Under the pieces are notes generated by a model. It saw only the letters and a list, made by a program, of their open reading frames with translations. It searched no databases and had not been told where the DNA came from. Position numbers and translations under genes: made by a program. A stretch of 57,030 bases of DNA, taken from positions 806,001-863,030 of the forward strand of contig QPGO01000019.1 of the NCBI GenBank assembly GCA_008632985.1, written 5' to 3'. Position 1 is the first letter of the stretch. Each line of letters begins with the position of its first letter. Below are positions 20,621 to 54,300 of the stretch, one piece after another. This DNA is from Psammoneis japonica (lineage: Eukaryota).

Positions 20621-20629
20621 TTTCCGCGC

Positions 20630-23600
20630 TCGCGCACTGCGATCCCGATCCCGACTGCGGGTTTGTTTTGATCAAATTTTGCAACTCCATGACCTGCATC
20701 CATGCCGTCATTGCCAAAGAACCACCAAGATGTGCCTCCGTGGTGCACATTTGCACACCCACATTTCTGACATCCATTTTCACCCCCGTGCAACTGCCAA
20801 TGTTCAGCTCATTGCATCCTCCTGCCCACGTCAAGAGCTCACTGCTTGGACAACCTCCCTTCAATGGCTCCACTCGCTGCCCCTGTCGCCCCCACCCTTC
20901 TGCGCCTCCCTCTGGCACAAACTCCCCCCTTCCTCCCGCCTCCAAGTCCTCCTCACCCTCCATCATCTCGTCCAATCGACTGTCGACTCCTCTGAGCCCT
21001 TCGACACCGACGACGACCCACCCCCTCCTTGGCAAACTGCCTCCGACCCTTTTTTCAAGCTCCTCTTCCTCTTTGAATCCCTTGTCCTCCACCCTCGACC
21101 CAAGCACTCCAACACCCCCCTTTCCACCACCATCACTCAACGTCTCTTCCTCTTCCGCAACGGTTCCATCCGCGCCCTCTACGACCAATCCCGTTTGATC
21201 CCTGCTCCCGACACATCCGACGAACCTCCCGACTTTGATGACACATCCTACACCCACTCCACCCAAGTTGCCGCCAACGTCAATGACCTCCATGCCGCCT
21301 GCGCCCGGGCCACCTCCTCCCTCCCCGTCGCCTCTCTCACCCCCGAACGCATGGAGCTTGTCAAGCAACTCTGCCCACCCCGCAAACACCCACCGCTTCC
21401 TTCCCCCCCATCCACCAGACACCACTGCTCTACCTCCTCCCCCCTGCACTTCACCGCCGACGACCTCCGCAAAGCCCTCGCTGAATGTCAACCAGGCAAA
21501 GCTCCCGGCGCCTTTGCCGATTCCACCGACCTGTTCAAGGCCTGCGCCCTCCACCGCCGCTCCACCCCAACCTCCACCTCATGCCCCTGCCTGCTCACCT
21601 TCAAACATCTGCTCGACCTCATTCTTGCAGCAGACATCCCTGCATCCATCAAGCCCGCCTTTTCTTCCAACTGCTTCCTCGCTCTCCACAAAGACTCCTC
21701 CAACCTTTCCAAACTTCGCCCCATCGGCGTCGGAACTGCCCTTCGCAGAATCATCGGCACCCTCATCATGTTCCTCTTTGCCGCCACCTTTGCTGCCAAC
21801 CTCCTCCTCTCGGCCAATTCGGAGTCGGCGTCAAAGGCGGTCTCGACCACCCAGTCGACACCACCCATGCCAACATTGAGCGATTCTTTGACCCAGACTC
21901 CACTCCAACCAAGGCCCTCCTCCTCCTCGACTTGTCAAATTGTTTCAACGAATGCTCCCGTGACGCTTGTCGCGACACCCTCGACAACTCTGACGAATGC
22001 CACCCCCTCATCCCTTTCTTCGACCCACTCCATCAAAACCCCAACACTTGCTGGTGCCGTGACCACCGCTTACAATGGTCCTCCTTCTCTCAGCCCGAAG
22101 GATTTGCTCAAGGCTGCCCCCTCAGCCCTGCCTTCTCCTGCCTTGTTTTGGCTCGTGTGTTCCAACCCATCAACGACGACCTGCATCGTCGACTCCCTCC
22201 CCGCTCCAAGTCCGCTGCCTCTTCTCACATCGATGACACCCACATCTTCCTTCCCTTCTCCCAGCTCCCCTGGTTCCTCAAGCGCCTTTCTACCTCCGGT
22301 CCCCAATTCGGCATCAAGCTCAACCCCTCCAAGACCCAAATTCTCACCTCCATCACCGGCTCCTCTCCCATCAACCGCCTTCCACCCTCCAACGCTGCTG
22401 CACTGTCCGAGGCCCTGGCCTTCCTCAACCCTCACAACGATCCCCACATCACACCCAAAATCACCACCGGCACTCGCTTCCTCGGTCGGCCCATCGGCTC
22501 ACCCGCTTTCGCCCTCGATTTCCTCCGCAATGAGGCCATTTCCTTCGCCACTGACCTTCATCGCCTCACCGTCCGGCTCACTGACAAACAAACACAGAGC
22601 ACCCTCTTCTGCAAGTGCTCACTCCCTTCCATCACCCACCTGCCATCTGCGGATGCATGCTGCAACCTTTCACCCTCCGACGACTTTCCACCTCCTTTTC
22701 AGTGGGCATCCCCCTTCGTCGACAAAATCATTGGCCACTCCCTGCGGTTCCTCACCTGCCTCACCCAACACACAGACCCCCTTCCATCTGCCTCCAAACT
22801 CATTGCCACCCTGCCCGTCTCTTTGGGAGGCATCGGATGTCGCGACATCTCCGCCGTCGCCATCCCTGCCCTCATCACCTCCCTCCTCCGCTCCATCCAC
22901 TGCACCAAACATGGCATCCCACCAACCGGTGGCGCCATCTTCCACCTTCCCTCAAGCCGCTCTTCCGCTCTCGGTTCATGGTCCAACCCCCGCTCCACCC
23001 TCTCCCTCTGCCAAATCTTCCGCCACTGCGCTCCCACCCTTCTCAAGCTCGACTCCCCCTCTTTTACCTCCCTTTCGCACGCTGTCGAACACCACAACCT
23101 ACGCGGTCTCTCACAGTGCCTCCACCTGCGCCATCACACACACCACACCCTCCCCTCAATCCTCACCGATCCTTCCATCCAACCAACACTCCCATCCCCA
23201 CTGTCGCCCCTCACAAGCCTGTGCCTTCACTCCCTGTCCCGCATCCCACACTCCAATTGCCTTCCGCCCCATCTTTTCACGATCCTCCTCTTGCGCAAGC
23301 TCCGTCTCCCTGTCATCCCACCCAACCTCTCCCAACACAACTGCCCATGCGGTCACGCCCACCCCGACCCATGCGGCGATCACGCCTTTGCTTGCTCCAA
23401 AATGCACAAAGGCCCCCCATCCAACCACATCCGTGACACGGTCCACACAATCATCGAGACCCTTGGTCCTCCATGCGGCCTCTGCCGATCCCGCCAACAA
23501 GTCTGCCTTGACCCTGCCGGACTCCTGCCCAACCACCCTCTAAAATGCCCCGCCAATGTTGGCGTCCAACTCACCCCCGGCTCCACACCACCAGACGCCC

Positions 23601-24295
23601 CATCCACCCATCAATTCACAGCAATTGACATCACCGTGCCGCCCGCTCCCCCGCCTCCTGCACCTGGTTTGCCTGTCCCTGAAAACCCACTTGACAAGGC
23701 TCACCTCAGCAGCACTCAGGACAAGCTCCTCGGCCGCTCTACATCCTCCGCCCACGGTTCTGACATCATCGATGCCACCAACCAAGCAGGCCTCTTCCTC
23801 CTCCCTTTCACCTTCGATCACCTGGGAGGCATCGGACACCACTTCCATCTTTTCTTTTTTGGTGCCTCCACCACTGCCTCCTCCTCCGCCCCCCCCCTCC
23901 CCCCCAAACCACCCTGGTCCCATCCATCCTCTTTCTCTAACTCTCAAGCATCCTTCTCTGCCTTCACCAACTCCCTTTTGGCTCCTTCCAACCTCCTCAC
24001 CCAATCCAACGCGGCCTGGAAACAACTTTCCCCCGCCCACTTCGGCTCCTCCTACCATGCTGCCACACCCCTACTTTGGGCTTCCCAAACCCTCAGCCTT
24101 AACTTTGGCTTTGCTCTCTCCAACCATCTCTCTACATGTCAAGCTTTCCTCCTCCGCCATCCCTCCGTCACCAACTCCTCCTCCCGACCGTCCGTCCGCA
24201 CCCTCGGCCAACCCTTTTTCTCTCCCTCTCCCAGCGCGCTCCGCGCGCTCCCTCCGCCACCTATTTCCCCAACACCACCACTACCGACCCCATAA
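20630..24295 (+). mobile_element. Non-LTR retrotransposon of RLE type (CRE-like): zinc finger, RT, CCHC, restriction-like endonuclease
   Basis: N-terminal C-x2-C...H-x4-H; LRPIGVG..LRRI, QFGVGVKGG, LDLSNCFN, GFAQGCPLSP, SHIDD (for YIDD), GIKLNPSK, LPVSLGGIG, CPCG...DPCGDHAFAC, and PAN...AIDIT (decayed PD...D). One frameshift near 21810; very C-rich coding strand. Confidence 0.85.
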
Positions 24296-27641: not shown

Positions 27642-29035
27642 ATGGGCCGAAGGGCTTTTTCCAGTCAACTGGCGGTAGCCAATGGGCTGCCAAAAGATCG
27701 CCTTCCCTCTACAGAAACTGAAGCTCGCAAAGCCCAAGAGACGTTGGAGTCCGATCTCCTAAACCTCTCTTTGGATGATCAAGAGAAGCTTTTGTTTGAG
27801 ATTCATGGTCTGCCTTGTTCGACCATTGATGACAATGCTGTCAGTGATCTGAACGAGAAGCTGGAGGACATGGAACGAGAGTTGGATGGACCCTTGAGCG
27901 ACAAAAAATCTGCGTACGATCGGGCACTCTACATGAACCCAGAGTACGTGAACAATTTGAAGCGGCTATTCTTGAGGTTTGTCGAATATGATCTCTATTA
28001 GCAGCCGATCAGATTGTTCAACATTTTGAAACCAAACAGTCCTTATTCGGTGACGGACTTGTCCTCGGACGAGGGTTGTTGTACAGCGATCTGTCAAAAG
28101 AAGACTTGGAATACCTTGAGAACAGCTCCATCCAAATATTACCGAGTCGAGATGCAGCAGGACGAGTCGTCGTTTTCTGTGCTCCTGGATGTGGAAAGCA
28201 GGGCTTCTCCGACAGTATGGTAAGTCTTCCCGATGATGCTAAAAAATTTCCATCTATCTTCTCCTTCTCAAACCGTTTTCTGCAGATACGTGCAGCTTGG
28301 TATTTTCAACAAGCCCTCTTACGAGAAGAAGGAGTACTGGAGAATGGGTATGTTCAAGTGAACTATAATATGGGAAAGTATGGAAGGGAGATTTCTCTAG
28401 AGGACATGGAGACGATAAGCAACAAGTTGGTTGATGGATGTTTCTTGAGAATGGCAGTCGAGCATTTCTGCTATGACGATCCAGGTATGAAAAACTGGGT
28501 GGCAGGAGGCGCACTTTTCTCCGACGAAAGCTATCGACACCGCCTGCGATGTCATTTCGGGTCAAAGTCGGATGTTTTGTTCAAGCTTCAAACTTTCGGA
28601 ATACCGACCCAGGATTTCCCTATAAACGATGAGGAGACTTTGGATCTCAGATGGCATCGACAATGGATGGAAATCCAGCGAAAGGCGGACGCAGATCTGA
28701 GCTCTCAGATATTCCTTGCCCCCCGTAAATTTGACGTGCTTTTTGGACGCGGACGCGACGTTCGCGTCCATTCGGGAAACTTGCACGCCAAACAGATCGT
28801 AGACACTCGCTATGACGAGTATGAAGTGGCGTGCAAACAAGACAAAACTCGGATAGCGGAGGAGGTTATTGCGGTGATCCACGAATCGTTTGGACGGTTC
28901 TTGAAATGGGAAGAAGAAAAGGGATGGGTCGAGGTCGAGTTCGAAGTCGCACGCGACAAGGTAGCCCACTTCTTTCGGCGGAGGCGAATTGCAAGTTCGG
29001 ATACGGCTGCAGACAAGAGCTCCTGTTCACCTTGA
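27642..29035 (+). CDS. Diatom CRAL-TRIO-like plus DUF6824 protein
   Basis: LSLDDQEKLLFEIHG, RDAAGR, R.RCHFGS..D..FKLQTFGIP, then DVLFGRG...HSGN...K...GRFLK...ARDKVAHFFR. Intron 28220..28286; frameshift near 27990. Confidence 0.8.
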
Positions 29036-29410
29036 TTCGTGATCTATGTCCCCCCTCCCGCCATTAGTACCGGTAGAGGCAAGCGCGAGCACTTATTCTT
29101 TTTTGTCACTGCTGATCTAGGCTCTCGTCCTGTATCAGAAATGTTTGGCTTTATTTTTCTACCATGGGAAGGCAAAACATACTTGTCTTGTGCCGCGTGT
29201 CGTGCTTGGTAGGTACGGTAGGAGAAAGATGGAATAGCAAAACAATTGGTTGTCGGTATGGCACTACACCTGTTCGGTGTCGATGGTGTTTAGAAATTTT
29301 GCAGCTGCTGTTGTAGCGACGTAGATCGGTTGATAGGGCCCTCTATTAGCTAGCTAGCACTATCCCCAACGCGCGATTCCTACTCGTAGTTGCAGAAAAG
29401 TGCAACTACT

Positions 29411-29714
29411 TGTCGCGGAACATGACTCAGGCGGGACTCAGATGATTGGGTCCCGTTCACGAATGAAGAGTCACGTGATTTCTGGTCACAAGAATCACGG
29501 CGAACCGGGATGTTTGCGATCCAGGGACGATGGTCCCCCGTGATGTTTGACGTGACGTTTGGATGTGTTACTTTGAGTTTGACAGGACTGTAATTCAGAA
29601 GAAGTAGAAAAGTAGATCATAATTTAGCGAGAGTGAGAAAAGTGAAGACTATTAATTTTAGTTTTATGTGCTACTGACGAGGTGTTAGTAGTATCGGCAT
29701 CTGGTTGTCCAACA
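29411..29714 (+). repeat. 5' LTR
   Basis: tgtcgcggaa...ttgtccaaca; colinear with 34881..35184, 14 substitutions and no indels by manual alignment. Confidence 0.96.
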
Positions 29715-29773
29715 CGATATATATCGACAGTTTGTGGCAACACTACATTCGAGAGTAGTAAGTGAGAGAAGCG

Positions 29774-32700
29774 ATGAGCAAGGAAGAACAGACCTACGAG
29801 ACTTCTTTGTCGTGGAGCGGCAAGAGAGAAGACTTCGAGAATTTTTGGTGAAATTCGAGGCATTCGAGAGCGACCACGGTTGTGAGGAAGCAACCGATGT
29901 GGATCTAGGAGATAAGCTTCTCACCAAGGCGGAATACGTGAATGGAAAGAAGAAAGTAACGCAAGCTAATGGTACAGAGACCGAAGAAGACCTCACAAAG
30001 GAGGACAAGAGGTTGCACAAGCTGAGCGCGAAATCATTTTCGAAGATCATCCGTGCGTTGCCTGAAAACTTGATCAAGGCCTGCAAGAACCAAGGTGGAC
30101 CCAAGAAGTCCGTTTATTTGATCAAAGAGTACCTCAAGAAACACTACTCGGAGCAGAATGTGGTAGATGATTACCAAAACCTATACAAGAAGAGGTTGGA
30201 GCTAGAACCTGGAGAGTTCGAGATAGCGCTGTTCTATTTCAACGAGTTGGAGGATGTTAACTCCAAGTTGGGAAAGATTGATGAAAAGTATCGCTTAGAT
30301 GAGCTTCAGTTGAAGACTGATATCTATTCAAAAGTCCCGGATCAAGGTAACTGGTCCTCTTTCAAGTCCGAGTATCGCAAGGACGGCGCGATGGAGAACA
30401 TTGCCTACAGTGCGTTCAAGCAGCACTATGAACGGGAGTGGAAAGCTCATGGTCCACCAGGAGGATCTACTACATCTATAGATCGATCTTCTGGAGAGGA
30501 TAAGACCCTAACTATGAAGGTACAGGGTAGCAAGTTTTTCCCGGGTAATTGTGGGAAGTGTGGCAAGAAAGGTCACAAGTCAAAATTTTGTCCTGACAAG
30601 AAGAACGCCAAGACGAAGAAATTCGATGGCGATTGCTTTTATTGCGGCAAGCATAGACATAGAGCGAGCGACTGCTTCAAGAAGAAGAAGGATGAAAAGG
30701 AGAAAGACGAAGAAACGAACGAGGTTACACTCGGAGTGTTCGATTCCGTCGACTTGGTTGAGGAGGGTAAGGACCATATTCCAGACTCCTTCTTCGATAC
30801 CTTCGATACTAAGCCTGCAGTTCGAGACGATGAGTTCGAGAGAGAGCTTAAGAGGTGGGATACTCGGTCTGGACTGGGTTACGGCTACGATAGTAGCGGC
30901 GAACGCGCGCTGTCATGGTACGAATGGAGCGAGATGGCGGACGATGAGGACGAAGAAGACGATGACGGCATGAGTATGCCGGAGCTAGAAGGTCCTTTTG
31001 TTTCTGATAAGGTCGAGGATGAAAGTATCCCGCCCTTGGAACCGCGGTATGATTCCGACAGCGATTCGGATGATGACGAGTCATTAGAGCTGATCGGCTC
31101 TCAACGCAAGTGCACCAACTGTGACGGGCCTGGACATGTCTATCGAGGCTATCGCACAACGAAGAAAGTTCAAGACGAGGACAAGGGAGACGAGGAAGAC
31201 AGTATCCCGCCCTTAGTATCTCGTGGCGGTTATGATAGCGACTCGAGCGATGACGAGTCGGTTGAATTCGAGGTTGTTTGCTCGTATTGCGGACAGCCTG
31301 GACACGAATTCTGCACTCCTTTCCAAGAGTTTTGGAATAACTCGGATGGAGAGAGCGATGATGACAGTGTGCCGACTCTAGAGAGTGGTATGGACTCGGA
31401 TAGTGATTCAGAGTCCGAGTTTGGTTACGATTCGGACGACGACTATGACGAAACACTGATGTCCGGTGCGCAACATGAACCAGAACGTGGCGGTGCAAGG
31501 CTACTATTGGACTCTGGCTCGACAGCACATACTAAGAGGTCTGCTGAAGGGATGCGGAACCTCAAGGAAGTGAACAAAGTCATGAAGGACGCACACGACG
31601 GGAGTTCGGTAGCGAAGCTCCAAGGAGATTTTCCATTTACGCGTCAGAATGGGGACGGTACAGTAGTTATTACTGAGATGTACGTCCAGCCAAATTTTTC
31701 ACATAACATTGTGAGTCTGACGAAGCTATTTGAGAAAAATTGCAAGCTGAGTCCGAAGACTGATCCCAAACGAGCCATTGTTCTCGAGTGCCCTGATGGC
31801 ACGGAATTAATTTTCGAAAAATCAGCGAAAGATGGGCTGTTTTATATGGAAGTTGACTCGCTGACGGATGTGTCCGAAATGACCGCAGACGTTTCCGATG
31901 GACAGAAATCTGGACAAAAAGAGTCGGACAAGAAAGTCCATGTTAACCGCGCACACATTTTGCTGAACCACATGGGAGAACGCGCGATGAAAATGGCGGC
32001 AGCAGATCTCGGTTGGAAATTGACCGGTATACCGAAGACCTGCGAGTTCTGTGTGAAGGCAAAGGCTACAGCAAAGCCAACCGTGAAGGCTAGCGATAAG
32101 AAAGCGACCAAGCCTGGTCAGCGGCTCTACCTAGACACGTCAGGACCATACAAAGCCACGCGCGGCAAGAATCGATATCATGTGATGATAGTCGATCAAC
32201 TTACAGATCGACTTTGGTCGATGTTCCAAGCGAAGAAAAATGGTTTTACGGACGATATCAAAGCTTTATTGACTAAGCTGAAGGGTCAGGGGTACCCAGT
32301 CGAGTTCTTACGGATCGACAACGCTCCGGAATGGGGTGCACTCAAGCCAATTTGTGATGAGTATGGGATCACGATCGAGTATACCTCCCCTAATACTCCG
32401 CAGTTCAACGCGGCAGTCGAGAGAGCGTTCCCAACAGTGCGTAATATGGCATACGCGGTACTGAAAGCATCCGATTTCGACGACGCAGAGCAAAGTCGGC
32501 AATGGGCGAATGCGCTGCAGGACTGCACTATCGTTCGTAACTTGGTCCCACGTGGGACTGGAGCAATGCTTATGAACCATTTGGAGAAAAGCCACCCGTA
32601 AAGCCGAAGACCTGGTAGAGTTTGGCGCAAAGGGGTGGATGGCCAAGAGAAACAAGATCAAGGCCAAGTTTCAAGATCGTGCCGAGGAGGTTCGTCGCGT

Positions 32701-35013
32701 AGGATACGCTGAGAATCACTCGAGCGATACGTATATTGTTCAAAAGTTATCAAATCGTCGTTGTGTGTTGACACGCGACGTGGTATGGGAGTCTAAAAGA
32801 CGATATGATCACCTAGACCCCGAGACAGTGGTCGAAAAGCAAACTCCGCGAGTAACTTGGGCGGACGACGCAAGACCGTCAACAGTGGTTGAAGAGATAT
32901 CACGCCCCTCTCAGTCATCCGCAGACGACCCCGACTTTCATGATTCTCATTCACAAATTGAGGAGGGAGAAGAGAGTGCAACAGACGGCGAGGAATCAAC
33001 GGATAGCGAAGAAAGTGACTCCGAGATGGGTGCGCCACCTGACGGACCAGGACAGACGGATAAAGAATCAGCTGTGAATAGTCGATTGGAACGCGAGTTG
33101 AGCAAGCTGAGGACTTCTTATAACCCAGCTGGTCTCCCAAGCGACGACGAGGACGAGGTAGAAGCGGTGAATATGGTCGCAGGATATGTTGATCCGAAGA
33201 ATGATCGCGAAGCGATGACAGGCGACGAAGCTGACGAGTGGTGGAAGGGTCTAGTCACAGAATACGATGGCTTTTTCGACTTGAGAACTTGGATACTGGT
33301 CAAGGAAGCCGAATTGAAAGGTAAAAAGATATCCAAGCCGCTATCAACGAAGAACGTCTACAAAAAGAAATTACACGCGATAACAAAAGAGGTGCGGTGT
33401 CGCGTGCGCAACTGCATTCGGGGGTTCGATATGATACCCGGAGTTCATTTCGATGAATCTTTGCACCTACTCCGACGGATCATACTGTGAGACTCATATT
33501 GGCGATATCATTATGGATGCTGGAACAGTTGGAAGTCGATGATATCGACGAAGCCGAGAAGGAGTGGATTGTCGGGCATTTGTTCGATGTTGTGCAGGCA
33601 TTTCTGAACTCAGAGATGACTGGACCACCTGTACATGTGCATCTTCCCCCTATGTGGAAGGAGCATTGCGAATATAAAGGTTGGGAATACAACGAGAACG
33701 ATCTTATTTTGCTCGGAAAGGCGCAATATGGGCAAGTCGATGCCGCGAAGCGCTGGATTGACATGTTTGTCGGAATCATGACTGAAAAGGGTGGCGTCGA
33801 GCTTAAACGAAGCAAGACTGACCCTTGTGTGTTGTACCGTCATGATGACAAGGGGCAGTTGGAGATTATCATTTTGATTTATGTGGACGATGGTTTCATA
33901 TGTGGGAAGCCGGAAGTCGTTAAGGAAGCCAAGGACTATCTGGCGAAGAGAGTTAAGACACTGGACATTGGACGAATCGACACTCATTTAGGAATTGATT
34001 ATGAGTTGAAGAAAGACGAACACGGTTGGTACTTCGAGTGCAGCATGCGCAAGTACGTGGAAAAGATGGTTGCGGAGTGCGAACAACGCTTCAACAAGAC
34101 ACTTAAGGATTACGAGACACCTGGGGAGCCAGGGAAGACATTGATGAAGGCGGACGAAGACCATGAGCCAGTCGAGCAAAACGGATATCGAGCCTTCGTC
34201 GGAAAGATCCTATGTGCGATGTTGAAGGTCTTACCTGATTGCGCGAATGCGATTAGAGCGCTGACAATGCATTTGACGAATCCAACTAAGGATCACTGGC
34301 ACGCGCTGGACAGACTTATGGGACATCTGAAATTTCACTGTCAGCCGTTGAAGTTGAGGTCACCTTTAGAATTAAGGAGCACAGGGACATTCGACGCTGA
34401 GTGGGGGACGGACAAGAATGACAGAAAGAGCATTTCGAGTGACATTTCCACATTGGGCGGTACGTCGTTAACTAATTGGCAATCGAAGAAGCAGACCTCT
34501 GTGGCGCTGAGCAGTTGTGAAAGTGAGACCATAGCGGGCACGGCGTGCGCGCAGAGCATACAATTCCAGAATCATTTATTGGAAGAGCTGGCAGGTACGG
34601 ACATGTTGAAGATGCCGAGTTATGCGTACGGAGACAACGCCGCATCACTGTTTCTGGCTGTTAACAACCAAGTGGGACAGCGGACGAAACACATTCATGT
34701 TCGTGATAGACATTTGGGCGAGTTGGTTCAACGTGGAGAAATTGAACCACGTCATGTCAGTGCGGAGAAGAACCCGGCAGATGTCAACACCAAGAACGCG
34801 AAGATCGAAACGCACAAGAGACTAGCTCAGAACCTGTGTGACGGATTCGTGATGGTTGAACCGGAACCAATCAAGGAGGGTGTCGCGGAACATGACTCAG
34901 GCGGGACTCAGATGATTGGGTCCCGTTCACGAATGAAGAGTCACGTGATTTCTGGTCACAAGAATCACGGCGAACCGGGATGTTTGCGATCCAGGGACGA
35001 TGGTCCCCCGTGA
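29774..35013 (+). CDS. Gag-Pol polyprotein of the copia element (three apparent frameshifts)
   Basis: ATG 29774 (MSKEEQ...WSGK); CCHC knuckles CGKCGKKGHKSKFC and CFYCGKHRHRASDC; protease LLDSGS; integrase H..H..C..C, YLDTSGP, RIDNA, PQFNAAVER; RT YVDD; RNase H DAEWG..RKS, SSCESE, GDN. Frameshifts near 29845, 32560 and 33460. Confidence 0.92.
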
Positions 35014-35184
35014 TGTTTGACGTGACGTTTGGACGTGTTACTTTGAGTTTGACAGGACTGCAACTCAGAAGAAGTGGAAAAGTAGATCACAATTTAGCGA
35101 GAGTGAGAAAAGTGAAGACCATCAATTTCAGTTTTATGCGCTGCTGATGAGGTGTCAGCAGCATCGGCATCTGGTTGTCCAACA
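34881..35184 (+). repeat. 3' LTR
   Basis: Direct repeat of the 5' LTR, preceded by a polypurine tract. Confidence 0.96.
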
Positions 35185-35316
35185 ACTGCTGGAGGATTTC
35201 ACCTTCATTGCTGTCAACAGTTCCGGTCATTTGAAACTTCCATCACCTTTCTACAGTCAATTGTCTTAAACAAATCAATGGTCCTGCAGGTCGCAACTCT
35301 TCAGGGCCCCAAACAA

Positions 35317-36003
35317 TCAAAATCTGTCTTGTTGCAGCTCTCCAAAGACGGCCAAAAATTGTGTAGAAAATCGCTGAAAAGAGTCCGTGTTGCTCTGCCC
35401 GTGTGATGCACTCATTTGATGCGTGCGACCAACACACGCCAGTTTCCAACATTTGGAACAAACGACATGCTTGCACCCAACGAAACGAAACGAAACACCA
35501 CTCTCTGTTGAACAGCACTTCTGCAGTGTCCACTTGGCTGGCGACGGCAATTCTCGGCATGTGTGAAATGGTTCGTAGCACGTCAGTGCCCCCGGCTTGG
35601 CGTCGGTCTCTGGAGGCTTGTTGCAAAGTGGAACTTGGCAAACAGAGCATGTGTGTGATGTCTGCCTTGGATTGCGGTCGGGAAACAATGACACATGTTG
35701 TGCCTTTTTGTCCTTCCAGATTGTCGAGCTACAGTACACACAAAACCGCCGTAGTTGAGTCTTGCGGTCGTCACTTTCCGATGCCATAGTTGCTGACGCT
35801 TGGCTTTTCTGGCTCACATCAGAGAGTCTTTGTTTCTTTCTGGCTGCGGGTGGATCCATGAGTCCAACGGCAATCAACTGGCTGAATTTACACGGTTGAT
35901 GATTTAGATGGAATGTGCCGTTGACATTCTCATTGAGTCTCATTTGCATGAGCTCAGGATCAGTCACCCACTGTTTCCGAGTCCTCTTCTTCGATGCCTC
36001 CAT
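35317..36003 (-). pseudogene. ORF with piggyBac-type C-terminal cysteine-rich domain (TE-derived remnant or small gene), TpA-depleted
   Basis: RRFCVYC...RQTSHTCSVCQVPLC...CYEPFH matches the R.C..C...T.Y.C..C.V.LC...C...FH pattern, with the expected Tyr reading His. No DDD catalytic core visible. Confidence 0.55.
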
Positions 36004-36631
36004 GGTGGCGTCTCTGCTGTCTGCCTGCTGCTTTTTCTGTGGTCTGTGGAGATGAGCCTTTGTTCAGGTCGTCCGGCAGGCCCCACCAAAGTGCAAGCAA
36101 ATGCATCAGCGAGAGGCGAGGAAATCAATGAAAGGCCTTTCGTCAGTCCGGAGTCCGCAGTGGAACGAAGTCGCACATCACCGCAGTTTTCTATGATGCT
36201 GTACCGGTACCTAGTTAGTTTACTAGGGCCTAGCTCTGGTAGCTAGAGTTACTCCGTGTTTTGTGAGTGCAACATTTATAGAGACATTTGTTAAATGAGT
36301 AGACCGTGTCTTTCTGACATTGTTTTAAGTATATAGGCATTCGAAAATCCATTGGGCACGATGACGTGGACTATAGAATCTAACATTGCCATGTCCGCGA
36401 CTTTTTCATGACAAGTCGAAAAATAAATGTTTAGAGTATCAGACGATATCAACTTATTGCCCGACATTTGTTAAATGTTTTGTATTATCATGCATGCTGG
36501 CATTTGTACCGGCACCGATAACGAAACTGGTCACCAAAAGAGTTTTTTTAGGTTTGTTTGTGATGTGCATTCAAGCTCACAAACAGAGGGGCAAAGAAGA
36601 AGCAAACAGGTCTTGACATTGAACGGCGAGA

Positions 36632-38322
36632 ATGCGTGGCAGCATTGTCACGATGCACCGACACTGTCACACAAATGCGGGTCAGAGAAAGCCGTGTTCA
36701 AGACGCGCCAAGTTTTCTTTGGTAAGGTGCACGTCGGTTGTTCTTTTCTTCATCTTGTTTTGCGTGCCTGTTTCGTGGTGCGCGGAGAATGAAGAAGAAG
36801 CATCCTCGAACAATGCAAAACCTGTTTGTGACGGAGACTGTAAGAAGCACAGAGAGCTTGAGCATGAAAAGAAGAAAAACGTACTCTTTCTCATGGCAGA
36901 CCAGATGTCGTTCCGAGTGATGGGGTTGACTGGAAATCACATTGTGAAGACGCCCAACATCGACAAATTGGGGTTGTCGGGTGTTGTGTTTAGAAACGCG
37001 TATACACAGAATCCGGTATGCGTGCCATCCCGGTGAGTATCGTAGTCACTGTCGTGCCAATGAATTTTCGACCAAAATTGATATTACTTTGGCTTATGCA
37101 TTTTGCCTGCTTGTTCATCGGTATGTAGTGCCTCCCTGGTCACTGGAATGAAACCATCCAAGGTTGGTGTCTTCTTCAATAAGAATCATGACCGTGATAC
37201 ATTGCGCGATTTCCCTCTGACGATGCCTCGAAGCTTTAGGAACCATGGCTATAATGTTGAATGGTTTGGAAAGGAACACTGGGGCAGTGATAATAAAGGA
37301 GTCGGATTCGGTAGGGGGAATGAAGAGTTCCCGCTGGTTAGACAACGCAATCGACAAAGTAAGCTTTCAAGGAGAAATGGAAATTGGCCGCAAGATGCCA
37401 CCACGTTCGAAGCCGACATGAATCCGACAATTGACGCGGCAATTGCAGATTTGGCTATTAATTTTTTGAAACGACACGGCAGCACCAAGCCCTTCTTTTT
37501 GGGTGTTTCCTTATACATGCCGCACTTTCCCCTGTTAGTGGAAGAAAAGTATTACGAATTGTACAAGGACGTGATGAAGCTTCCCCGAGTAACACAGGTG
37601 ATGGATGACAACATTCCAATAGTTCTGCGAGATCGCCGTGCTCAGAACTATCCAAACTTGACGCCCGACCAGACTTTGAAAGCACGTGCTGTTTACTTTG
37701 GCATGGTGTCGCATGTGGATGATCTAGTTGGTAGGGTGATTGAAGCTCTAGAAGACCAGGGACTTCGCAATGATACCATTATTGTGTTCACGTCAGACCA
37801 CGGAGATCTTATAGGTGAACACGGGCTTTGGTACAAGAACAGTTTCTTGGAGGGATCCGCTAAGGTGCCACTCATGATATCGCACCCACCAGAAATACCT
37901 CCGAGAACCGAAAACTGGGGTCCCGTCCAGTTGATGGATTTATTTCCAACTCTGAGTGAAATGTGCGGGGTTCCAATTCCGTTCGACAAGGTGGATGGGA
38001 AAAGTTTGATGCCCATTGTTCAGGGTAGGGAAATGGGTGGGCACGACATGCGAGTGTTGAATCTTACGACAAGGAAATAGCTGGGCGCATGGTTCGTTAC
38101 AAGAAATGGAAATACAGTTGGTATGAGGACGGAAACGGGGTAGGACGGTACTTGTACAATGTGAAAGACGACCCAGCTGAAGAATTCAATCTTTACAATG
38201 TGACGGAGTACTCCGATTTGATCACGGAGTTGCACAAACTATCGATGGAAGACTTTGTGCCTCTTAAAAATCGTCTGCGAATGTTGTCAGAGAAAGATGC
38301 AGAGGAAGACTGGATGTGGTGA
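36632..38322 (+). CDS. Sulfatase (formylglycine-dependent, choline-sulfatase-like)
   Basis: NVLFLMADQ, TPNIDKL, CVPSRASLVTG after splicing intron 37033..37128, GKEH, PFFL.VS..PH.P, FTSDHG..GEHGLWYK, DLFPT. Apparent frameshift near 38040-38090. Confidence 0.92.
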
Positions 38323-38479
38323 GAGGTTAGAGTATGAGGAACGTGCTACGAAAGAAGCACTGAAGAGTCATTCTGGCTTGTAACATCTGGAGTGACGTTA
38401 CTTTGCTTTACGTCGTAGCCCCCTCGGGAATACCGAAGTAAATAGAAATCTACAGTGCTGCCAATTCTCTCACCCGTCC

Positions 38480-41400
38480 TTAGCATCACATCTTGTGCTA
38501 ATTTGTGGATGGAGAGTGGAGAGGACTCTGCTGGCGCAGTTGCTGAAGCATCCCAAAACCGAAGCTGGACGGGAGGCTCTCCAGCACCCCCACCATGCGA
38601 AGATTAAGGCCAAAAGCACACTGGAAGGGCTGGAGGGCTGTTACTGTCAAGATTGGGACCGAGGACAAATTGGCTTCTTGCAGAAGAAACAAGCATGACC
38701 CGGGTGAAATTGCACATGATGGACTTGGCTTGAAGGGCAGGGCAGCAGGCCCAGAGTTGCATTGTGTTGACATTGACATGAGCACACAACAGGACCATGT
38801 TGCACCAGCTGCTTGAGGACAGCAGCTTGAAACACTGGCAGGGTTGAAGCCAAAGGTGTGAGACAAGAGGGTGAGGACTGTGACACGCAGCACATTCATG
38901 ATGTTGCTTGGCTTGGGGAGATGCCAGACCAACATCTGTTGTCAAGGTGAGCAACCAGCAGTGTGTCACAGGTGGTGCACTGTTGGCTGCACCATTGGAG
39001 ACACAAAGGTGAGCTGGGGCATCCCATGCAGCCAAGGCTGATGACTTTGCCACAGATGTTGTTCTTTTGCATGGTGAAAGCTGAGGAAGAAAAAGTGGCT
39101 GCATCCAGCTGGGTGTCGCCAGTGTCTGAGAAAAAGCTCAAACAACCAATTGACACAGCGCTGCTTGCCAGCTGGTGCTGGCACCCCTTTCAGGCTTTCA
39201 GCCAGCTGACAAGATGCAAAACAAATCTGGGTTTAAAGTGCCATCACTCCTTTGCCAGCTGGCATTTCCAGAAAACAGTCAAGTGCTGCAGAAGTTGACA
39301 GGGACTGACAAGATGCAAAACACTTGAGAGGGATGTGTCAGATCAGCACCTTGGAAGGGAAAAAAGGGTGAAACTTGCACCTCAACTCACACGTGTGTGA
39401 TCAAGGGGGGCAGTGCACCATCAGCTGAAAATTTGGCCAGCTGACCAACAAGCCCTTGTTGCTGGCATGAGCTGCTTGTGGCCATCTTTGTGTCAGCCAT
39501 GAGCTGTCCATCCTGTGTGGTTTGATGTTGGGCTCCTTGGCTCTTGGTTGGTTTGACAGCTGCGTGGCTGTGCAGTGTTGTGGTTTTCTCTTGCTGAAGC
39601 TGAGCTCCCATGCCAAGCTCAAAAGGCTGACGCTCTTGAGCAGCAGCTGTGTTGGCCAGCCAGGGGGCTGCTTGGCCGTGTGTGCAGTGTTCAGAGGAGA
39701 GAAGCTCAACAAGGGAGCAAGGTTGTGGAAGCAGTGCTGAAAATTGCCCAGCAGGGGGTCTCAGTCTCCAGATGACAGAAGTGGTGATGGACAAAGCTGT
39801 CAAATCTCTTTGCAGCCAGTTGGCCATTTGGAGGGTGTGTTGTGCCGCTGCAATGCCCCCACATTCCACGCAGCATTTTGATGAGCTGGCAGCCCCTCAA
39901 GATGACTGTCACAGCTGATGACATGCTGTCAGTCAGTTGCTTGGCATCATGGCTGCAGGAGGTGCTTGTGAGCATGCAGCTGGTGTGACTGGTGGGTTTG
40001 GCAATGCCATCAAGCACATGGAGATGGTCACAAGCGGCTCTGGCACAAAACTCCAAGCCACCTGTGAGGATGTGCTTGTGCATGAGCCTGTTCTGTTTCT
40101 CTCTGAAACTCCTGCTGCAGCTGAAAACATGCTTGGGGTGTCTTCACCATCCTGCTTGTGCTGTGGACAATGGCTGTGATCCTCCTGCTGCTTTGTCTGT
40201 TGCCAAGGCCAGTGCAATGTTTTCAAAATGTCCATGCACAGTGCTGCTGCCACCACCTTGGCAACCACCAGGGTGTGCCCATCCTCATTGACCACCATGG
40301 CCAAGGCAGCCATTGCAGCATGCTGCTGCCTGATGACCTGGCCCCAGAATGTGGCTGCACTGCTCCAGCCAGGTCTCAGAATGGTTGCTGGCAGCAGCGA
40401 ACAATGCTGACAATGTTCTGGCACCATTGTGGTCATTGTTGCAATTTTTTGGCTGCAGTGGAGCAGAGCCTGTGCTTCTGGGTGGGTGCAGGTGGCAGAT
40501 CCAGTGCCCCCCCCCTGCTGTGCCACCAGCATGGGCTGGCTGCTGCTGCACAAAGGATCCCACTGGTGCCATTCCCAGTGGCTGCAAGCAGGATTGCTGG
40601 TGGCACCACCAGCTGGCGATGCCTTTTTCCAGCCCACAAACTGGTGGTGGAATGATTTGCAGCAGCTGTGGACAAGAAAGACAGTCTGGGTTTGTCGCAG
40701 GTGCCAGTGCTGGAGGAGCACAGTTCACATTGTGTGTCAAGCCCATGCAAAGCCCGCTGAAAATGCCAAGTCTTGTTGCTGCCCATGATGTCACAAAGCT
40801 GAGTGCCAAGACACACTGACAGAGGCCAGTTGAAGCCCTCCAGCCAGCAACAGCAACAACTGGTTGAAATGAAATGGCACAAAAAGGAGGTTGTTGCTTT
40901 CTTTTGGAGCGGGCAAAGTGGAAAGTGTGTGCACTGCAACAGCAAAGGACAATCACACTCAGAAGACAGCGCAATTTCAGCACAAGATCTGTGTGAGAGA
41001 AACCTTGCTTCCAAAGATGAGTCTTGTCTTGCCAAAGACAGGCTGCATTTCACACTTGTGCAGGCCCTGGAATGACACAGTGAGGAGCTCACCACTCAGA
41101 ACTTAGAGCAGTGAGCTTGGCAAGCCAGCAAGCAGAAAAAAGGGATGTTCGGGACTTCTTCTTGTTGCAGGTGTGAAGTGGACAGCCTTGTTGATCACAT
41201 GAAGAGATGGGTGTTGGAAGAAACATTTCTTCTCCCATGGAGACAATGCCAGATCTTGCACAGAAATGCAGATCTGCACAGCACGTGGACAATGGGGTTG
41301 TTGGGTGATGTGCTGAAGGTTTGTCCAAATGAAAACTCAGCTCACACAGTTGATGATGTGGGCGGTGGTCATTGGTGGACTTTTTCTGAAGTGTCCAGAA

Positions 41401-48814: not shown

Positions 48815-51300
48815 TGGGGTTCTCTAATGTGCTGAGCACCTTTGGCACTGACAAGATTCTGTTTTGTCTTGCCTGGCCTGCAAAGCTCGACGATGCAAGC
48901 TTTCGCTTTCACTTCATCGGTGCGGTTGGCATTTTTCTCGTGAGCCAAAAAAGTCGAGATTGGCATTTTCAATGGCTGAGGTTGCAGCTGACCTCACTTG
49001 CCGTTAAAAAACAACGGGCCATTGGGAACATGCCGATGCACGCTGTGCGCACAGTCTTTGCCCAAAACTCCATTGTGGAGAAAAAGGTGGGCGTCGTCTT
49101 CTCAGTTGATGGTCTGAGCCTGCGAGCTAAAGACCAGATGGCATGGACCAGCCTGCTGTTGTTTGGTGATTGGGGTTTTGTGCAACCCTAAATTCAAAAA
49201 AACTCAAACGGGCGTAAGCCGAAGCACCGCAGGCGCGGCAGGCAGCCCATTTGAGTTTTTTGCCGGAGTTGAGTCATTGCTGCAATTGGCAAGTCATTGG
49301 CTCAGAGCTCCGGTGACAGCAGCTCAATGTGTTGTGAGACCTGGTGTCCTTCTGGTTCATCAAGACATGTTTTCATTGAGGCGTCTCTCAAATTTCGTGG
49401 TCACGAGCATGCTGTCACAAATCTGTCAAAGCCAGAGTGCCAAGCCAGTGTGTCGTTGTATGTGCATCAGATCGATGCTCGCGGTGTGCCTCTTGGGTGG
49501 TGTTCCTTGTGGAAGAACAGGACTGAGCTCGAATTGTTGGTGGGCGTGGTGTCTGGTTGCTGGGGGCGTTGATCCATCCGCTCTGCAGCTTCCATGAAGA
49601 GATGACGGATGGTGTTTTGGTCGTGACCTCTTGCGACGAGTCTCTTCGCAAAGTTTTCTGCGGCGTTGGTGTGATCGCGTGCGTCAGAATTTTGCGTGCA
49701 GAACCATCGCAAGTTTCCATGTGTGATGCTCTTCAGGACTCCTTGTGGGTGGGCGGAGCTGGAAGGTGTGCACAAAAAAAGATTCATTGGTTTTTGGTGA
49801 GTTTTTGCAACAATGCATCCGTCTTCTCCAATCTTTGTTTCCAGGTCCAGGAAGATTGCAGAGGCAGAAAGTGGGGAGGCAACCCATTGAAGGGGGCCTG
49901 AGTTGTTAAGCTCGTTTTTGAAAGCTTCCCAGGCATCTCCACTGTTTCCAGTCCATGCTCCAAGTGTGTCATCAATGAACCGTCCATGGTGCAGGAGGTT
50001 CGGGGTGAAGTTTTTCGTTGTCACTTGCCGTTCATGCAGCGCTTTGTGCAGTGTGGTGCACATGCAAGCGGTGCTTGTGCCCACAGCCGTTCCGGTCGTC
50101 TGCAGCCAGAAGGTGTCGTCAAATTGTGTGATGTTGCTGGTCATGACGACCTTCAAGGTTTCCAGAAAAAAGTGTTTTGGGAAGGCTTCTGGTGTCTCGT
50201 CAGGGCATTCTGAGAACCAGGTTTCAAATGCTTGGAGTGCATGATTCGCATCAATGTTGGCACACATGCCCACTGCATCAACTGTGAACAGTCGTGCATC
50301 TGGTGGCAGCTCTTTCAAGGCTCGTAGGTCGGCGAGGACTTGGCATGAGTCTCGGATGAAGGACCAGGAGAGTGCAAGCAGCTGTTTCATTTTATGATCA
50401 AGCCAAGTCGAAAATGTTTCATTGAAGCCACCGACACAACTGACGATTGGCCTTGTTCTCCAGGGTGAGTTGTGGACTTTAATGGTGACATGGAATTGGG
50501 GGACGCGGTGGGGCAGTTTGAAACTTCTGGTGAAGCAAGTGCATTCTGCGGCACTTAAAATGTTTTTTGCTTCATCACATGCTTTCTTGAGCTTTTCTTT
50601 TGCATCCGCTGGGAGTTGGTCTTTTTTCTCCAGAGGCAGTTGTTGGCAGTTCCGCTTGTTCAGCAGATGGTCTGTCAAGGCTCTTGACATGCAGGTTTTT
50701 CGCTCAAGGATTGCGGGCCCAAGATTTTTGTTGCTGAGGCATGCAATGAATCTCCTGTCTGCCTTCAGGGTTTTTAAGAGGCGGCATTGCATGGGTGTGA
50801 GGTTGCAGCATCTTCGGCCGGCCACAGCTGGGTGGCTCGTGCATTCAACTTGTGCTGCAAAGTCCATCATGCGGAGTTCGAGGTTGCCTTTTTCTATTTT
50901 GGGTGGGTCCCAGTTTGACTTGATGCACAGTCCTGGAATGCAGTCATCACCCGGGGTTTGGGCATCTGCGCTCGTAAGGAAATGTCTAAGGTGCATTGAT
51001 CGACAGAGCTGGTCCATGCTTTCCTCAATTCTTGGGCTTGGTTTTGGTGTTTCGATGCAGCACTTGTGTCCAAGGCCAAGCAGCGTTGTGAGTCCCAGCA
51101 GGGGTTGCATGGTTGTGCACAAATTGTGGCAGGCCAAGTTGTCAGGTTGGTTGAAGCAGTCGGGTGCTTGCATGTTTCCGAGTGCACTGGCTGCGTTCTG
51201 CCAGGGGTTTAGATTTGGGTTTGGTGTGAACCCAAATGTGCGCTGGCAGTGATTGTTGGCGATTGTTTCAGTGGTGTCAATTGGCTGTTGGGTGTTCTGG
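48815..51300 (-). mobile_element. Penelope-like retroelement, 5'-truncated minus-strand arm
   Basis: NKNLGP, RPIVS, DAVGMCANI (for D..SMY.NI), QFDDTFWLQ..GTAVGT, RFIDD, FLDL, KTHQKPMNLFLC.P..SAHP, RPRNLRD. Reverse complement of 51815..54313. Confidence 0.88.
48870..48931 (-). ncRNA. Hammerhead ribozyme-like motif (type I), mutated core
   Basis: Minus strand reads tgccaaccgca-ccgatga-agtgaaagc-gaaa-gcttgcatcgtcgagc-tt-tgcaggccaggca; the core reads CCGATGA instead of CTGATGA. Confidence 0.6.
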
Positions 51301-54300
51301 TGGGATGCCTTTGAAGAAGCAACACTTTGCTCACAACGGCAAATTAACCACGAGCGTGAGATGGCACAAGCAAACGCCAGAGTTGCCGCGGTGTGGTGCT
51401 CTTGCCAGAAAAAGGAGGCAGCGGAAGCAACGGCTGCAGCTCTGGAACAAGAGCCAACTGCAACACCGCCCCTCCTCAGGCAGGCAGCATGCAAAGAGAC
51501 AGAAATTGCAAACAAGGATGAGAAAAAGCCACAAGGCAAGAACAAGCAAAAAAAAAAACGCAAAGGGCGACCGGAAAGCCCCACCGGCAGTGCAAAAACA
51601 AGGCCCGAGAAAGAAACGCCCAGCAGCACAAAAAGAAAATGGTCCGCCAAGCAAGAAATGAAGATTCGAAAGAAACTGCAGACAAAACAAAGGCCCTCAA
51701 GACAACAAGAGGAAAAAAGGCCAAGGAAATGCAAAAGGACCTCGAGGCGCACAGCGCAACGGCGGGCAAAGCAACTCCAGAAACAAGAAAACAGGCGGCA
51801 GGTGCAAATGACCTGCCAGAACACCCAACAGCCAATTGACACCGCCGAAACAATCGCCAACAATTGCTGCCAGTGTACATTTGGGTTCATGCCAAACCCA
51901 AATCTAAACCCCTGGCAGAACGCAGCCAATGCACTTGGAAACATGCAAGCACCCGACTGCTTCAATCGACCTGACAACTTGGCCTGCCACAATTTGTGCA
52001 CAACCATGCAACCCCCGCTGGGACTCGCAATGCTGCTGGGCCTTGGACACAAGTGCTGCATCGAAACGCCAAAACCAAGCCCAAGAATTAAGGAAAGCAC
52101 AGACCGGCTCTGTCGATCAATGCACCTCAGACATTTCCTTGTGAGTGCAGATGCCCAAACCCCGGGTGACGACTACATTCCAGGACTGCACGTCAAGTCA
52201 AACTGGGACCCACCCAAAACAGAAAAAGGCAACCTCGAACTCCGCATGATGGACTTTGCAGCAGGGGTTGAATGCACGAGCCGCCCAGCTGCGGCTGGCC
52301 GAAGACACTGCAACCTTGCACCCATGCAATGCCACCTCTTAAAAACCCTGAAGGTAGACAGGAGATTCATTGCATGCCTCAGCGACAAAAATCTCGGGCC
52401 CGCAATCCTTGAGCGAAAAACCCACATGTTAAGAGCCTTGACAGACCATCTGCTGAACAAGCGGAGCTGCCAACGACTGCCTCTGGAGAAAAAAGACCAA
52501 CTCCTGGTGGATGCAAAAGAAAAGCTCAAGAAAGCACATGAGGAAGCAAAAAACATTTTAAGTGCCGCAGAATGCACTTGCTTTGCCAGAAGTTTCAAAC
52601 TGCCCCACCGCCTCCCCCAATTCTACACCACCATTTAAGTCCACAACTCACCCTGGAGAACAAGGCCAATCGTCAGTTGTGTCGGTGGCTTCAATGAAAC
52701 ATTTTCGACTTGGCTCAATCATAAAATGAAACAGCTGCTTGCGCTCTCCCGGTCCTTCATCCGAGACTCATGCCAAGTCCTCGCCGACCTACGAGCCTTG
52801 AAAGAGCTGCCACCAGATGCACGACTGTTCACAGTTGATGCAGTGGGCATGTGTGCCAACATTGATGCGAACCATGCACTCCAAGCATTTGAAACCTGGT
52901 TCTCAGAATGCCCTGATGAGACACCAGAAGCCTTCCCAAAACACTTTTTTCTGGAAACCTTGAAGGTCGTCATGACCAGTGACATCATGCAATTCGACGA
53001 CACCTTCTGGCTGCAGATGACCGGAACGGCCATGGGTGCAAGCACCGCTTGCATGCAAGCCACACTGTGCAAAGTGCTGCATGAACGGCAAGTGACAACG
53101 AAAAACTTCACCCCGAACCTCCTGTGCCATGGACGGTTCATTGATGACATGCTTGGAGCACATGGACTGGAAACAGTGGAGATGCCTGGGAAGCTTTCAA
53201 AAACGAGCTCAATGACTCAGGCCCCCTTCAATGGGTCACCTCCCCACTTTCTACCTCTGCAATCTTCCTGGACCTGGAAATGAAGATTGGAGAAGACGGA
53301 TGCATTGTTGCAAAAAACGCACCAAAAGCCAACGAATCTTTTTTTGTGCATGCCTTCCAGCTCCGCCCACCCACAAGGAGTCCTGAAGAGCATCACATGT
53401 GGAAACTTGCGATGGTTCTGGATCGAAGAGACTCGTCACAAGAGGTCACGACTAAAACACCATCCGTCATCTCTTTGTGGAAGCTGCAGAGCGGACAGAT
53501 CAATGCCCTCAGCAACCAGACACCACGCCCACTGACAATTCGAGCTCAGTCCTGTTCTTCCACAGGGAATGCCACCCAAGAGGCACACCGCGAGCATCGA
53601 TCCAACGCGCATGCAACGATGCACTGGCTCGGCACTCTGGCTTTGACAGACTCGTGATGGCACACTCGCGACCACGAAATTTAAGAGACACCTTGATGAA
53701 AACACATCTCGATGAACCAGAAGGACACCAGGTCTCATGATGTGTTGAGCTGCTGTTACCGGAGCTCTGAGCCAACAACTTGCCAATTGCAGCAATGACT
53801 CAACTCCGGCAAAAAACTCAAATGGGCCACCTGCCGTGCCTGCGGTGCTTTGGCTTGCGCCCATTTGAGTTTTTTTGAATTTAGGGTTGCACAAAACCCC
53901 AATCACCAAACAACAGCAGGCTGGTCCATGCCATCCAGTCTTCAGCTCACAGGCTCAGACCATCAACTGAGAAGACGACGCCCACCTTTTTCTCCACAAC
54001 AGAGTTTTGGGCAAAGACTGCGCGCACAGCATGCATCGGCACATTCCCAATGGCCCATCATTTTTTAACAGCAAGTGAGGTCAGCTGCAACCTCAGCCGT
54101 TGAAAGTGCCGATCTCGACTTTTTTAGCTCACGAGAAAAATGCCAACCACACTGATGAAGCGAAAGCGAAAGCTTGCATCGTCAAGCTTTGCAGGTCAGG
54201 CAAGACGAAATGGAGTCTTGTCAGTGCCAAAGGTGTTCAACACATTGCAGGTTGGGCAAGACGAAGTGGAGTCTTGTCAGTGCCAAAGGTGTTTGGCACA

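Follow-up and report, generated by a model that had tools for sequence, protein, structure and literature searches.

A young copia retrotransposon within a 57,030-bp stretch of the Psammoneis japonica genome (contig QPGO01000019.1, positions 806,001 to 863,030 of the forward strand; this whole stretch is called the window below) carries two long terminal repeats (LTRs) that differ from one another chiefly at the dinucleotide TpA (TA), most sites that are TA in the 5' LTR being CA or TG in the 3' LTR. Comparisons of sequence make it quite probable that TA was lost in place at the 3' end of this element and not gained in its 5' LTR, and we infer that the differences between the LTRs share the direction of change seen in the adjoining coding DNA. 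The polarity assigned to the LTR pair rests on four indirect lines: the continuity of a TA-poor segment across the 3' end of the element, comparison with related proteins, the two arms of an inverted repeat elsewhere in the window, and the fit of contigs from sequencing runs to either LTR. The coordinates of the features discussed are collected in Table 1.

The LTR pair was delimited by a repeat search, ungapped pairwise alignment and BLAST of the window against itself, with the differences counted by script. It is a direct repeat of 304 bp in each copy, aligning without gaps at 95.4% identity and bearing the TG...CA ends that mark the LTRs of Ty1/copia elements. All 14 differences are transitions, and all fall within LTR positions 154-282. 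The 5' LTR contains 14 TA sites and the 3' LTR four; 10 of the 14 are CA (eight sites) or TG (two sites) in the 3' LTR, and the reverse case, TA in the 3' LTR only, does not occur (10 versus 0, Fisher p = 1.5e-4). Given as 5' LTR/3' LTR, the remaining four differences are TG/CG at LTR positions 154 and 259, TT/CT at position 184 and CG/TG at position 268. A preliminary reading of the letters alone (the sequence-only reading) had counted 14 differences in 304 bp, with 10 of 14 TA sites as CA (8) or TG (2), three CG/TG differences and one T/C, and each of these figures is exact. Differences are found at 10 of the 14 TA sites and at 4 of the 276 other positions (Fisher p = 1e-12), a concentration at TA far beyond chance. 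The TA sites of the 5' LTR are all located at LTR positions 159-282, and the first 153 bp, in which neither LTR has any TA, are identical between the two, as a change directed at TA predicts for sequence that has none to lose. These first 153 bp (29411-29563 and 34881-35033), with no TA and about 14 CpG, resemble the flank that is depleted in TA only.

The flanks of the element read ...GCAACTACT up to the initial TG on the left and ACTGCTGG beyond the terminal CA on the right. The letters proposed as a target-site duplication in the sequence-only reading, ACTACT on one side and ACTGCT on the other, do stand there and match at 5/6 positions (P = 0.0046 for at least 5/6 by chance), although the same flanks can alternatively be read as a perfect 3-bp duplication, ACT/ACT (P = 0.016). 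Copia elements usually give a 5-bp target-site duplication, and a 5-bp match is absent at the ends of this element.

The TA-poor state of the 3' LTR is continuous with that of the DNA on either side of it. The window was described by a 1-kb dinucleotide profile and by a three-state segmentation over pyrimidine-purine (YpR) steps, a descriptive device whose emission values were of our own choosing, and the segment so delimited at the 3' end, 34711-36185, starts within the internal region 170 bp before the 3' LTR, takes in that LTR in full together with the right copy of the duplication, and extends 1 kb into the right flank. The ratio of observed to expected TA is 0.69 in the left flank, 0.90 in the right half of the 5' LTR and 0.64 in the internal region from 29715 to 34710; it is 0.11 from 34711 to 34880, 0.34 in the right half of the 3' LTR and 0.16 in the right flank (35185-36185). 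Observed/expected CpG within the segment is 0.58-1.11 (0.75 in the flank), and the two LTRs contain 18 and 17 CpG. That CpG is retained in 34711-36185 while TA is gone indicates that the two losses are separable, TA loss having come first or alone. The 3' LTR has kept 4/14 of its TA sites (29%) and the flank a comparable share, about a quarter of the normal level (0.16/0.64-0.69), which fits a single exposure of the whole segment after insertion if the starting TA content of the flank is assumed. Reads came from three runs of one sample and were compared as contigs aligned to the window, run X3 contributing no contig; the comparison takes in 40 of 766 contig differences, 8 of 75 loose ends and 15 of 24 joints. 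In run X1 the right flank has single-copy depth (61-66, with 48-64 over neighboring genes), and because this single-copy DNA is TA-poor, homology pairing is not required. The suggestion of the sequence-only reading that the change follows position rather than homology pairing is supported by this flank, which is as TA-poor as the element's end.

Depletion of TA extends well beyond the element, and the segmentation divides the window about half into depleted and half into normal DNA. Domains in which TpA is almost absent (observed/expected 0.00-0.10) have CpA and TpG at 1.7-2.0 times expectation and often a CpG ratio of 0.1-0.2, a value reached in at least eight 1-kb windows of non-genic domains. 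They have a G+C content of 0.44-0.59 and consist of complex sequence, not simple repeats. The nearly TpA-free domains are 1-1730, 7429-9206, 18551-24039, 38666-42070 and 43425-57030, most of them also very poor in CpG; the stretch 38666-41674, for example, has 2 TA and 22 CG in 3009 bp. Loss of TA alone with CpG kept is seen in 20625-24039, 48888-54207 and 34711-36185. The 1-kb profile reveals no domain in the window that is enriched in TA and poor in CA/TG. Recognizable genes, namely those for an ABC-G transporter, a DEAD helicase, a DUF6824/TAZ protein, a SET/Rubisco-LSMT protein, a MYND protein and a sulfatase, all lie in normal segments as long uninterrupted frames, with the depleted segments in between. 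Proteins of raphid pennate diatoms (Nitzschia, Cylindrotheca, Amphora, Bacillariaceae) share 60-71% identity with the LSMT-like protein, which marks the host as diatom-like; the DUF6824/TAZ protein had no usable match in the protein atlas.

Between the LTRs lies what is, by the order of its Pfam domains, a Ty1/copia retrotransposon. Gag, protease, integrase and reverse transcriptase/RNase H are spread over three frame pieces (29734-32601, 32639-33490 and 33487-35013), in which zf-CCHC (residue 515), Pol_BBD (591-670), SH3_retrovirus (at the integrase end) and RVT_2 follow one another in the order gag-protease-integrase-RVT_2 required of that class. The integrase core domain rve does not reach E 0.001 in the element itself, but the protein relatives of the element carry PF00665. 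The likely start of gag is the ATG at 29775. Relatives of the reverse transcriptase piece are 52-59% identical and derive from metagenomes, the best named match being a diatom protein at 41%. All run X1 contigs have one base after 29841 and one after 32553 that are missing from the window, so that this copy is, on the contig comparison, defective or imperfectly assembled. Within the first frame piece a 69-bp direct repeat (31014-31082 and 31191-31259, 74% identical) encodes an acidic stretch rich in Ser and Asp.

The direction of change in the coding DNA can be read from proteins related to the element. The three frame pieces were aligned with 38 such proteins, and columns were kept if at least 70% of at least five relatives agree; the Tyr/His counts leave out two Tyr columns (32566 and 32593) and one His column (32578) that lie past the frameshift at 32553, and an apparent replacement of Met by Val at 29734 in gag was discarded on account of the likely start at 29775. 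Tyr (TAY) is conserved in 26 columns, and in 8 of these the element carries His (CAY) or Cys (TGY); the converse, Tyr in the element where the relatives agree on His or Cys, occurs in 1 of 33 columns (p = 0.007). Among single-step replacements, the right 1.4 kb (33487-34878; 256 columns) has eight of the type that loses TA and one of the type that gains it (binomial p = 0.04), and the left 3.7 kb (29734-33486; 311 columns) has three and four, respectively. Two of the loss-type changes, Leu to Pro (CCA) at 34747 and Tyr to Cys at 34837, fall within the last 170 bp of the internal region. The coding DNA adjoining the 3' LTR has, as judged by these relatives, lost TA. The sequence-only reading had confined the loss to the right end of the element: the 5' LTR has indeed lost 0 of 14 sites, but the restriction was slightly too strong, since loss-type replacements reach back to about 33400-33640. 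The first frame, which lies beside the 5' LTR, stays open through 955 codons, and in the alignment with the 38 relatives no conserved Gln or Trp column of the two left frames has become a stop. All conserved Gln columns in these frames are kept, as are all conserved Trp columns but four, where the element has Phe or Tyr (29863, 30130, 30406 and 32669), none of them through a change from CA or TG to TA. The open frame and the absence of such stops argue that DNA beside the 5' LTR has not suffered damage of the TA-gaining type produced by repeat-induced point mutation (RIP).

Loss of TA can also be followed in an inverted repeat lying in a depleted domain of the window, whose arms of about 2.4 kb differ by 181 substitutions, 175 of them transitions. 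Aligned steps at which one arm has CA and the other TG number 44, versus three with AC and GT, and adjacent double differences number 49, where 2000 random trials gave 13.4 on average and never more than 27. These CA/TG double differences show that TA or CG was resolved independently, in place, in each arm. At CpG, 62 steps are CG in both arms and 53 are CG in one and CA or TG in the other, from which a hand estimate derives only about 5-6 of the 44 CA/TG steps from CpG; the rest fits about 95 ancestral TA sites of which about 89% were lost independently per arm. The long frames of the inverted repeat have no Pfam match above cut-off. Double changes at a single YpR step were also encountered at 38902-38903 and 34698-34699, where the window has TG and all run X1 contigs have CA; at 34699 the relatives have a conserved Ile, so that CA is older there and doubles can also arise by two successive steps. 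An 80-bp paralogue pair, formed by the start of the DEAD-helicase gene (9350-9429) and a copy in depleted DNA (54940-55019), has the states CG, CG and TA in the gene and TG, TG and CA in the depleted copy.

The contigs of run X1 offer a partial view of other members of the family. Their depth is 220-600 over the element and about 48-66 over neighboring single-copy DNA, which indicates a multi-copy family. Ten contigs (depth 1135) align on the 5' LTR at LTR position 256, as against three (depth 212) on the 3' LTR; among the differences listed, these three carry the T of the 5' LTR at position 259. Within that listing the contigs suggest that the majority of the family resembles the 5' LTR in its variable half. 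One X1 contig matches the LTR only from 29577 and has unrelated sequence before that point. No joint across an empty insertion site was found among the 15 of 24 joints listed.

The most probable explanation is that the Ty1/copia element inserted with identical LTRs, and that a later, local process converted TpA to CpA or TpG, by A:T to G:C transitions, over one continuous segment of about 34711-36185, taking 10 of 14 TA sites from the 3' LTR and leaving the 5' LTR untouched. The same process, driven to saturation and in places accompanied by loss of CpG, would have erased TA from about half of the window in its intergenic stretches, and it would follow position, that is, the domain, and not sequence homology. 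The agent may be an enzyme that deaminates adenine, in either strand of TpA, to inosine (which is read as G) and that is guided to its domain by chromatin or RNA. The affected domain could either have spread from the flank into the element or have arisen after insertion over about 1.5 kb. Convergent transcription from a TA-rich island at 36192-36550 into the 3' LTR may have played a part, and the TA-free first 153 bp of the LTRs may represent a U3 region inherited from a mother copy with an eroded 3' LTR.

A full-text literature search for a TpA to CpA/TpG signature returned a single report, a 2026 preprint on the chlorarachniophyte Bigelowiella natans, and found none from diatoms. In the experiments of that preprint, two integrated viral regions in mutation-accumulation lines mutate about 1000-fold faster than background; of the 231 mutations found there 230 are A to G or T to C, and all 230 fall on TpA. 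The larger hypermutating region is confirmed as single copy (10.64898/2026.01.13.699255). The preprint also describes 124 clusters of TA-depleted, CA+TG-enriched windows in a genome of about 95 Mb, with a Rho of 0.45 in the active region, an enrichment of reverse transcriptase and transposase domains in TA-depleted sequences, and an ADAT2-like adenine deaminase as the proposed agent (10.64898/2026.01.13.699255). The case described here shares with B. natans a spectrum of TpA to TpG/CpA directed towards GC (10 of the 14 LTR differences, with the direction taken from proteins and not from observed mutations), a restriction to delimited regions with normal neighboring DNA (sharply limited in B. 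natans; here with 0/14 sites lost from the 5' LTR and 10/14 from the 3' LTR), and an effect on single-copy DNA that rules against homology as the driver (here a flank of depth 61-66 with observed/expected TA of 0.16). As for mobile elements, one depleted domain of the window has an RVT_1 match (21485-24295) and the edge of a copia element is eroding, which may correspond to the enrichment described in B. natans; that match is the single one above Pfam's cut-off among 27 depleted or TA-poor frames scanned. The differences from B. natans are also substantial: the host, with its diatom-like genes, belongs to another supergroup lineage; the scale is far larger, with about half of 57 kb depleted and TA ratios down to 0.00-0.1; many domains have lost CpG too; the effect extends to a unique flank and to the border of a new insertion; and the process is deduced from standing sequence, with no de novo mutations observed.

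Other known systems are less close. RIP in ascomycete fungi likewise makes dinucleotide-specific transitions, ruins mobile DNA and leaves domains of skewed dinucleotide content, but it creates TpA from CpA and renders DNA AT-rich, whereas here TpA is destroyed, CpA/TpG stand at 1.7-2.0 times expectation and G+C is 0.44-0.59. It also needs duplicated sequence and mutates both copies, while here one LTR has lost 0/14 sites and a single-copy flank is hit, and in both direction and the involvement of both copies the case falls outside the fungal definition. Diatom transposable elements carry 5-methylcytosine, with methylation-driven decay of CpG (PMC9998398), and the window's non-genic domains do show such loss of CpG to TpG/CpA (observed/expected 0.1-0.2); this decay cannot remove TpA, however, and 34711-36185 keeps its CpG while TA is lost. 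Editing of retroelements by APOBEC or ADAR enzymes before integration (PMC4866542) likewise produces clustered transitions of one kind in an LTR element, but cannot explain an equally TA-poor unique flank or the independent outcomes in the inverted-repeat arms. The proposal of the sequence-only reading that mutation took place in situ after insertion is supported by the continuity of the TA-poor segment, the polarity of the proteins (8 versus 1), the inverted-repeat arms and the precedent of B. natans. A broader and more tentative proposal, to which we give somewhat less than even credence, is that this pennate diatom runs a TpA-specific A:T to G:C hypermutation of DNA like that of the chlorarachniophyte, as the default state of nearly all its non-genic DNA. 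Such a process would be saturating (observed/expected TA near 0), would act before and apart from the decay of methylated CpG, and would creep 0.5-1.5 kb over domain borders into fresh insertions within about 1% of background divergence, with its scars passed on by retrotransposition, which would explain the TA-free 153 bp.

Several observations weigh against the loss of TA from the 3' LTR. The ancestral LTR would be oddly two-part, with 0 TA in positions 1-153 and a TA ratio of 0.90 in positions 154-304, and three of the four differences outside TA sites would, if placed in the 3' LTR, be T to C changes outside TpA, unlike the strict TpA rule of B. natans. The left and right parts of the element contrast weakly (p = 0.07-0.11). 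Both LTRs have TA at LTR positions 203 and 256, where all contigs among the differences listed have CA or TG, and the family therefore does not match the 5' LTR in a simple way. All three contigs have G at 35121, and no difference shared by all of them is listed at 35120; this hints that other copies of the family have CG at 35120-35121 (LTR positions 240-241), from which the CA of the 3' LTR is one step nearer than TA. The 3' LTR's own letters at 35121, 35136 and 35139 occur in no contig among the differences listed, which makes its assembly less secure. Some of these points would favor the opposite polarity, in which the 3' LTR is ancestral and the right half of the 5' LTR has undergone RIP-like or cytosine-deaminase changes of C to T (CpA to TpA and TpG to TpA), possibly by deamination of plus-strand strong-stop DNA during reverse transcription that was fixed in the 5' LTR only. 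Thirteen of the 14 differences would then be C:G to T:A changes in a single copy, the ancestral LTR would be evenly poor in TA (4 TA in 304 bp), and the CG hinted at in other copies would be accommodated; DNMT4 enzymes related to fungal RID are present in diatoms with unknown function (PMC9998398), which lends cytosine-based processes a small prior. This reversal is nonetheless unlikely. All 10 hits would have had to land on the 28 CA/TG sites in positions 154-304 and to spare the 24 in positions 1-153 (P = 8e-4 if uniform). To alter the left copy of the duplication as well, the event would need to have acted beyond about 150 bp of LTR that stayed unchanged, and the TA-poor segment that surrounds the 3' LTR and runs into unique flank would be left unexplained. 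The 955-codon frame beside the 5' LTR is open with no conserved Gln or Trp turned into a stop, a TA-enriched, CA/TG-poor domain is seen nowhere in the window, and most contigs fit the 5' LTR better among the differences listed.

Two further explanations leave the direction of mutation aside and question the history or the assembly of the 3' end. An older copy of the family, already depleted in TA, could have donated the end of the element (about 34700-35184) through ectopic gene conversion or recombination; the family is multi-copy (X1 depth 220-600 against about 55 for single-copy DNA), contigs unlike both LTRs align on the 3' LTR, and the differences are restricted to one end. The TA-poor state, however, continues unbroken and with similar TA retention into 1 kb of flank that is single copy, and also into the duplication's right copy, neither of which conversion from another locus could change, and the first 153 bp of the two LTRs are identical; we rate this account a little lower than reversed polarity. 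Lower again stands an artefact of assembly or polishing, in which the 3' LTR was corrected with reads from other copies or the LTRs of different copies were joined. The window has only 0.73 of its 31-letter words in common with run X1, an estimated difference of about 1%, it is without the single bases present in all X1 contigs after 29841 and 32553, and the unmatched letters of the 3' LTR at 35121, 35136 and 35139 would be of the kind expected. Yet the 5/6 duplication links the left and right ends as those of a single insertion (P = 0.0046), TA is scarce in the unique flank in its own right, and X1 depth is present in 30/30 bins of 28800-41500, the fully TA-free domain included, with few differences listed there.

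Some other candidates were rejected. A base-calling artefact at modified bases and a dinoflagellate-type replacement of thymine were both dropped, since X1 depth is present in all 30 bins, those of the TA-free domain among them, and the host genes are diatom-like. Genome-wide mutation with selection keeping TA in genes was dropped because the non-coding 5' LTR keeps 14/14 TA, and protection by the element's own transcription, in its simple version, misfits the altered part of the 3' LTR.

Table 1. Coordinates in the window of the copia element, its target-site duplication, the TA-depleted segment at its 3' end and the inverted repeat.
Feature	Position	Strand	Basis
Left copy, putative 6-bp target-site duplication ACTACT (TA kept)	29405..29410	.	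Flank reading, 5/6 match with right copy
5' LTR, 304 bp, TG...CA, 14 TA	29411..29714	+	Repeat search, alignment
Internal region of Ty1/copia element	29715..34880	+	Open reading frames, Pfam domains, protein relatives
TA-depleted, CpG-retaining segment	34711..36185	.	Segmentation; 15 TA and 77 CG in 1475 bp
Purine tract AAGGAGGG, putative polypurine tract	34873..34880	+	Directly abuts 3' LTR; function inferred from position
3' LTR, 304 bp, 4 TA left	34881..35184	+	Repeat search, alignment
Part of 3' LTR with all 14 differences	35034..35162	+	Per-position count; 10 are CA/TG opposite 5' LTR TA
Right copy, putative target-site duplication ACTGCT (TG opposite left-copy TA)	35185..35190	.	Flank reading
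Left arm, inverted repeat in TA-depleted domain	48826..51300	+	Self-BLAST, arm alignment
Right arm, inverted repeat	51816..54246	-	90.5% identical to left arm

A few additional features of the depleted DNA deserve mention. The stretch 20625-24039 is depleted in TA and has a G+C content of 0.59-0.60, a weak RVT_1 match and a GC skew of about -0.5; it probably represents an old retroelement of a different type. Pfam returned nothing else above cut-off for the 27 frames searched in depleted or TA-poor DNA, nor anything for the frame 42023-42895 in DNA of normal composition. The TA-poor right flank of the element contains a frame of 228 residues on the minus strand (35317-36003) with a Cys/His-rich pattern, which resembles a transposase zinc ribbon but has no Pfam match even at E = 1; the flank may be the relic of an old mobile element. 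At the border between the TA-rich island and the depleted segment, four T to C differences in nine bases, outside TpA, separate the window from an X1 contig (36553-36561), and a 125-base replacement between window and X1 contig lies nearby at 36321-36447. A single N at 20132 and a run of 72 N at 41588-41659, both in depleted domains, are assembly gaps or masked letters.

If the polarity proposed here holds, the LTR pair is a natural before-and-after record of the erasure of TpA at the level of DNA in a diatom, by a process that works after integration, is aimed by place rather than by sequence similarity and changes TA sites at least about 50 times faster than other positions (10/14 versus 4/276). 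It would extend the phenomenon from one rhizarian alga, known from the 2026 preprint, to the ecologically dominant diatoms and to a much larger genomic scale, and the comparison of LTR pairs with domain borders would provide a simple genome-wide assay of its rate, spread and timing. LTR-divergence dating, repeat finding and homology search are biased in such genomes; the warning of the sequence-only reading that divergence dating would be inflated holds arithmetically, with 14/304 = 4.6% overall versus 4/276 = 1.4% outside TA sites, an apparent divergence inflated about threefold. Should the reading of TpA-specific hypermutation in diatoms prove true, every LTR-based age estimate in such genomes would be distorted, and targeted adenine editing of DNA would be an old genome defense across the lineages of stramenopiles, alveolates and Rhizaria (SAR).

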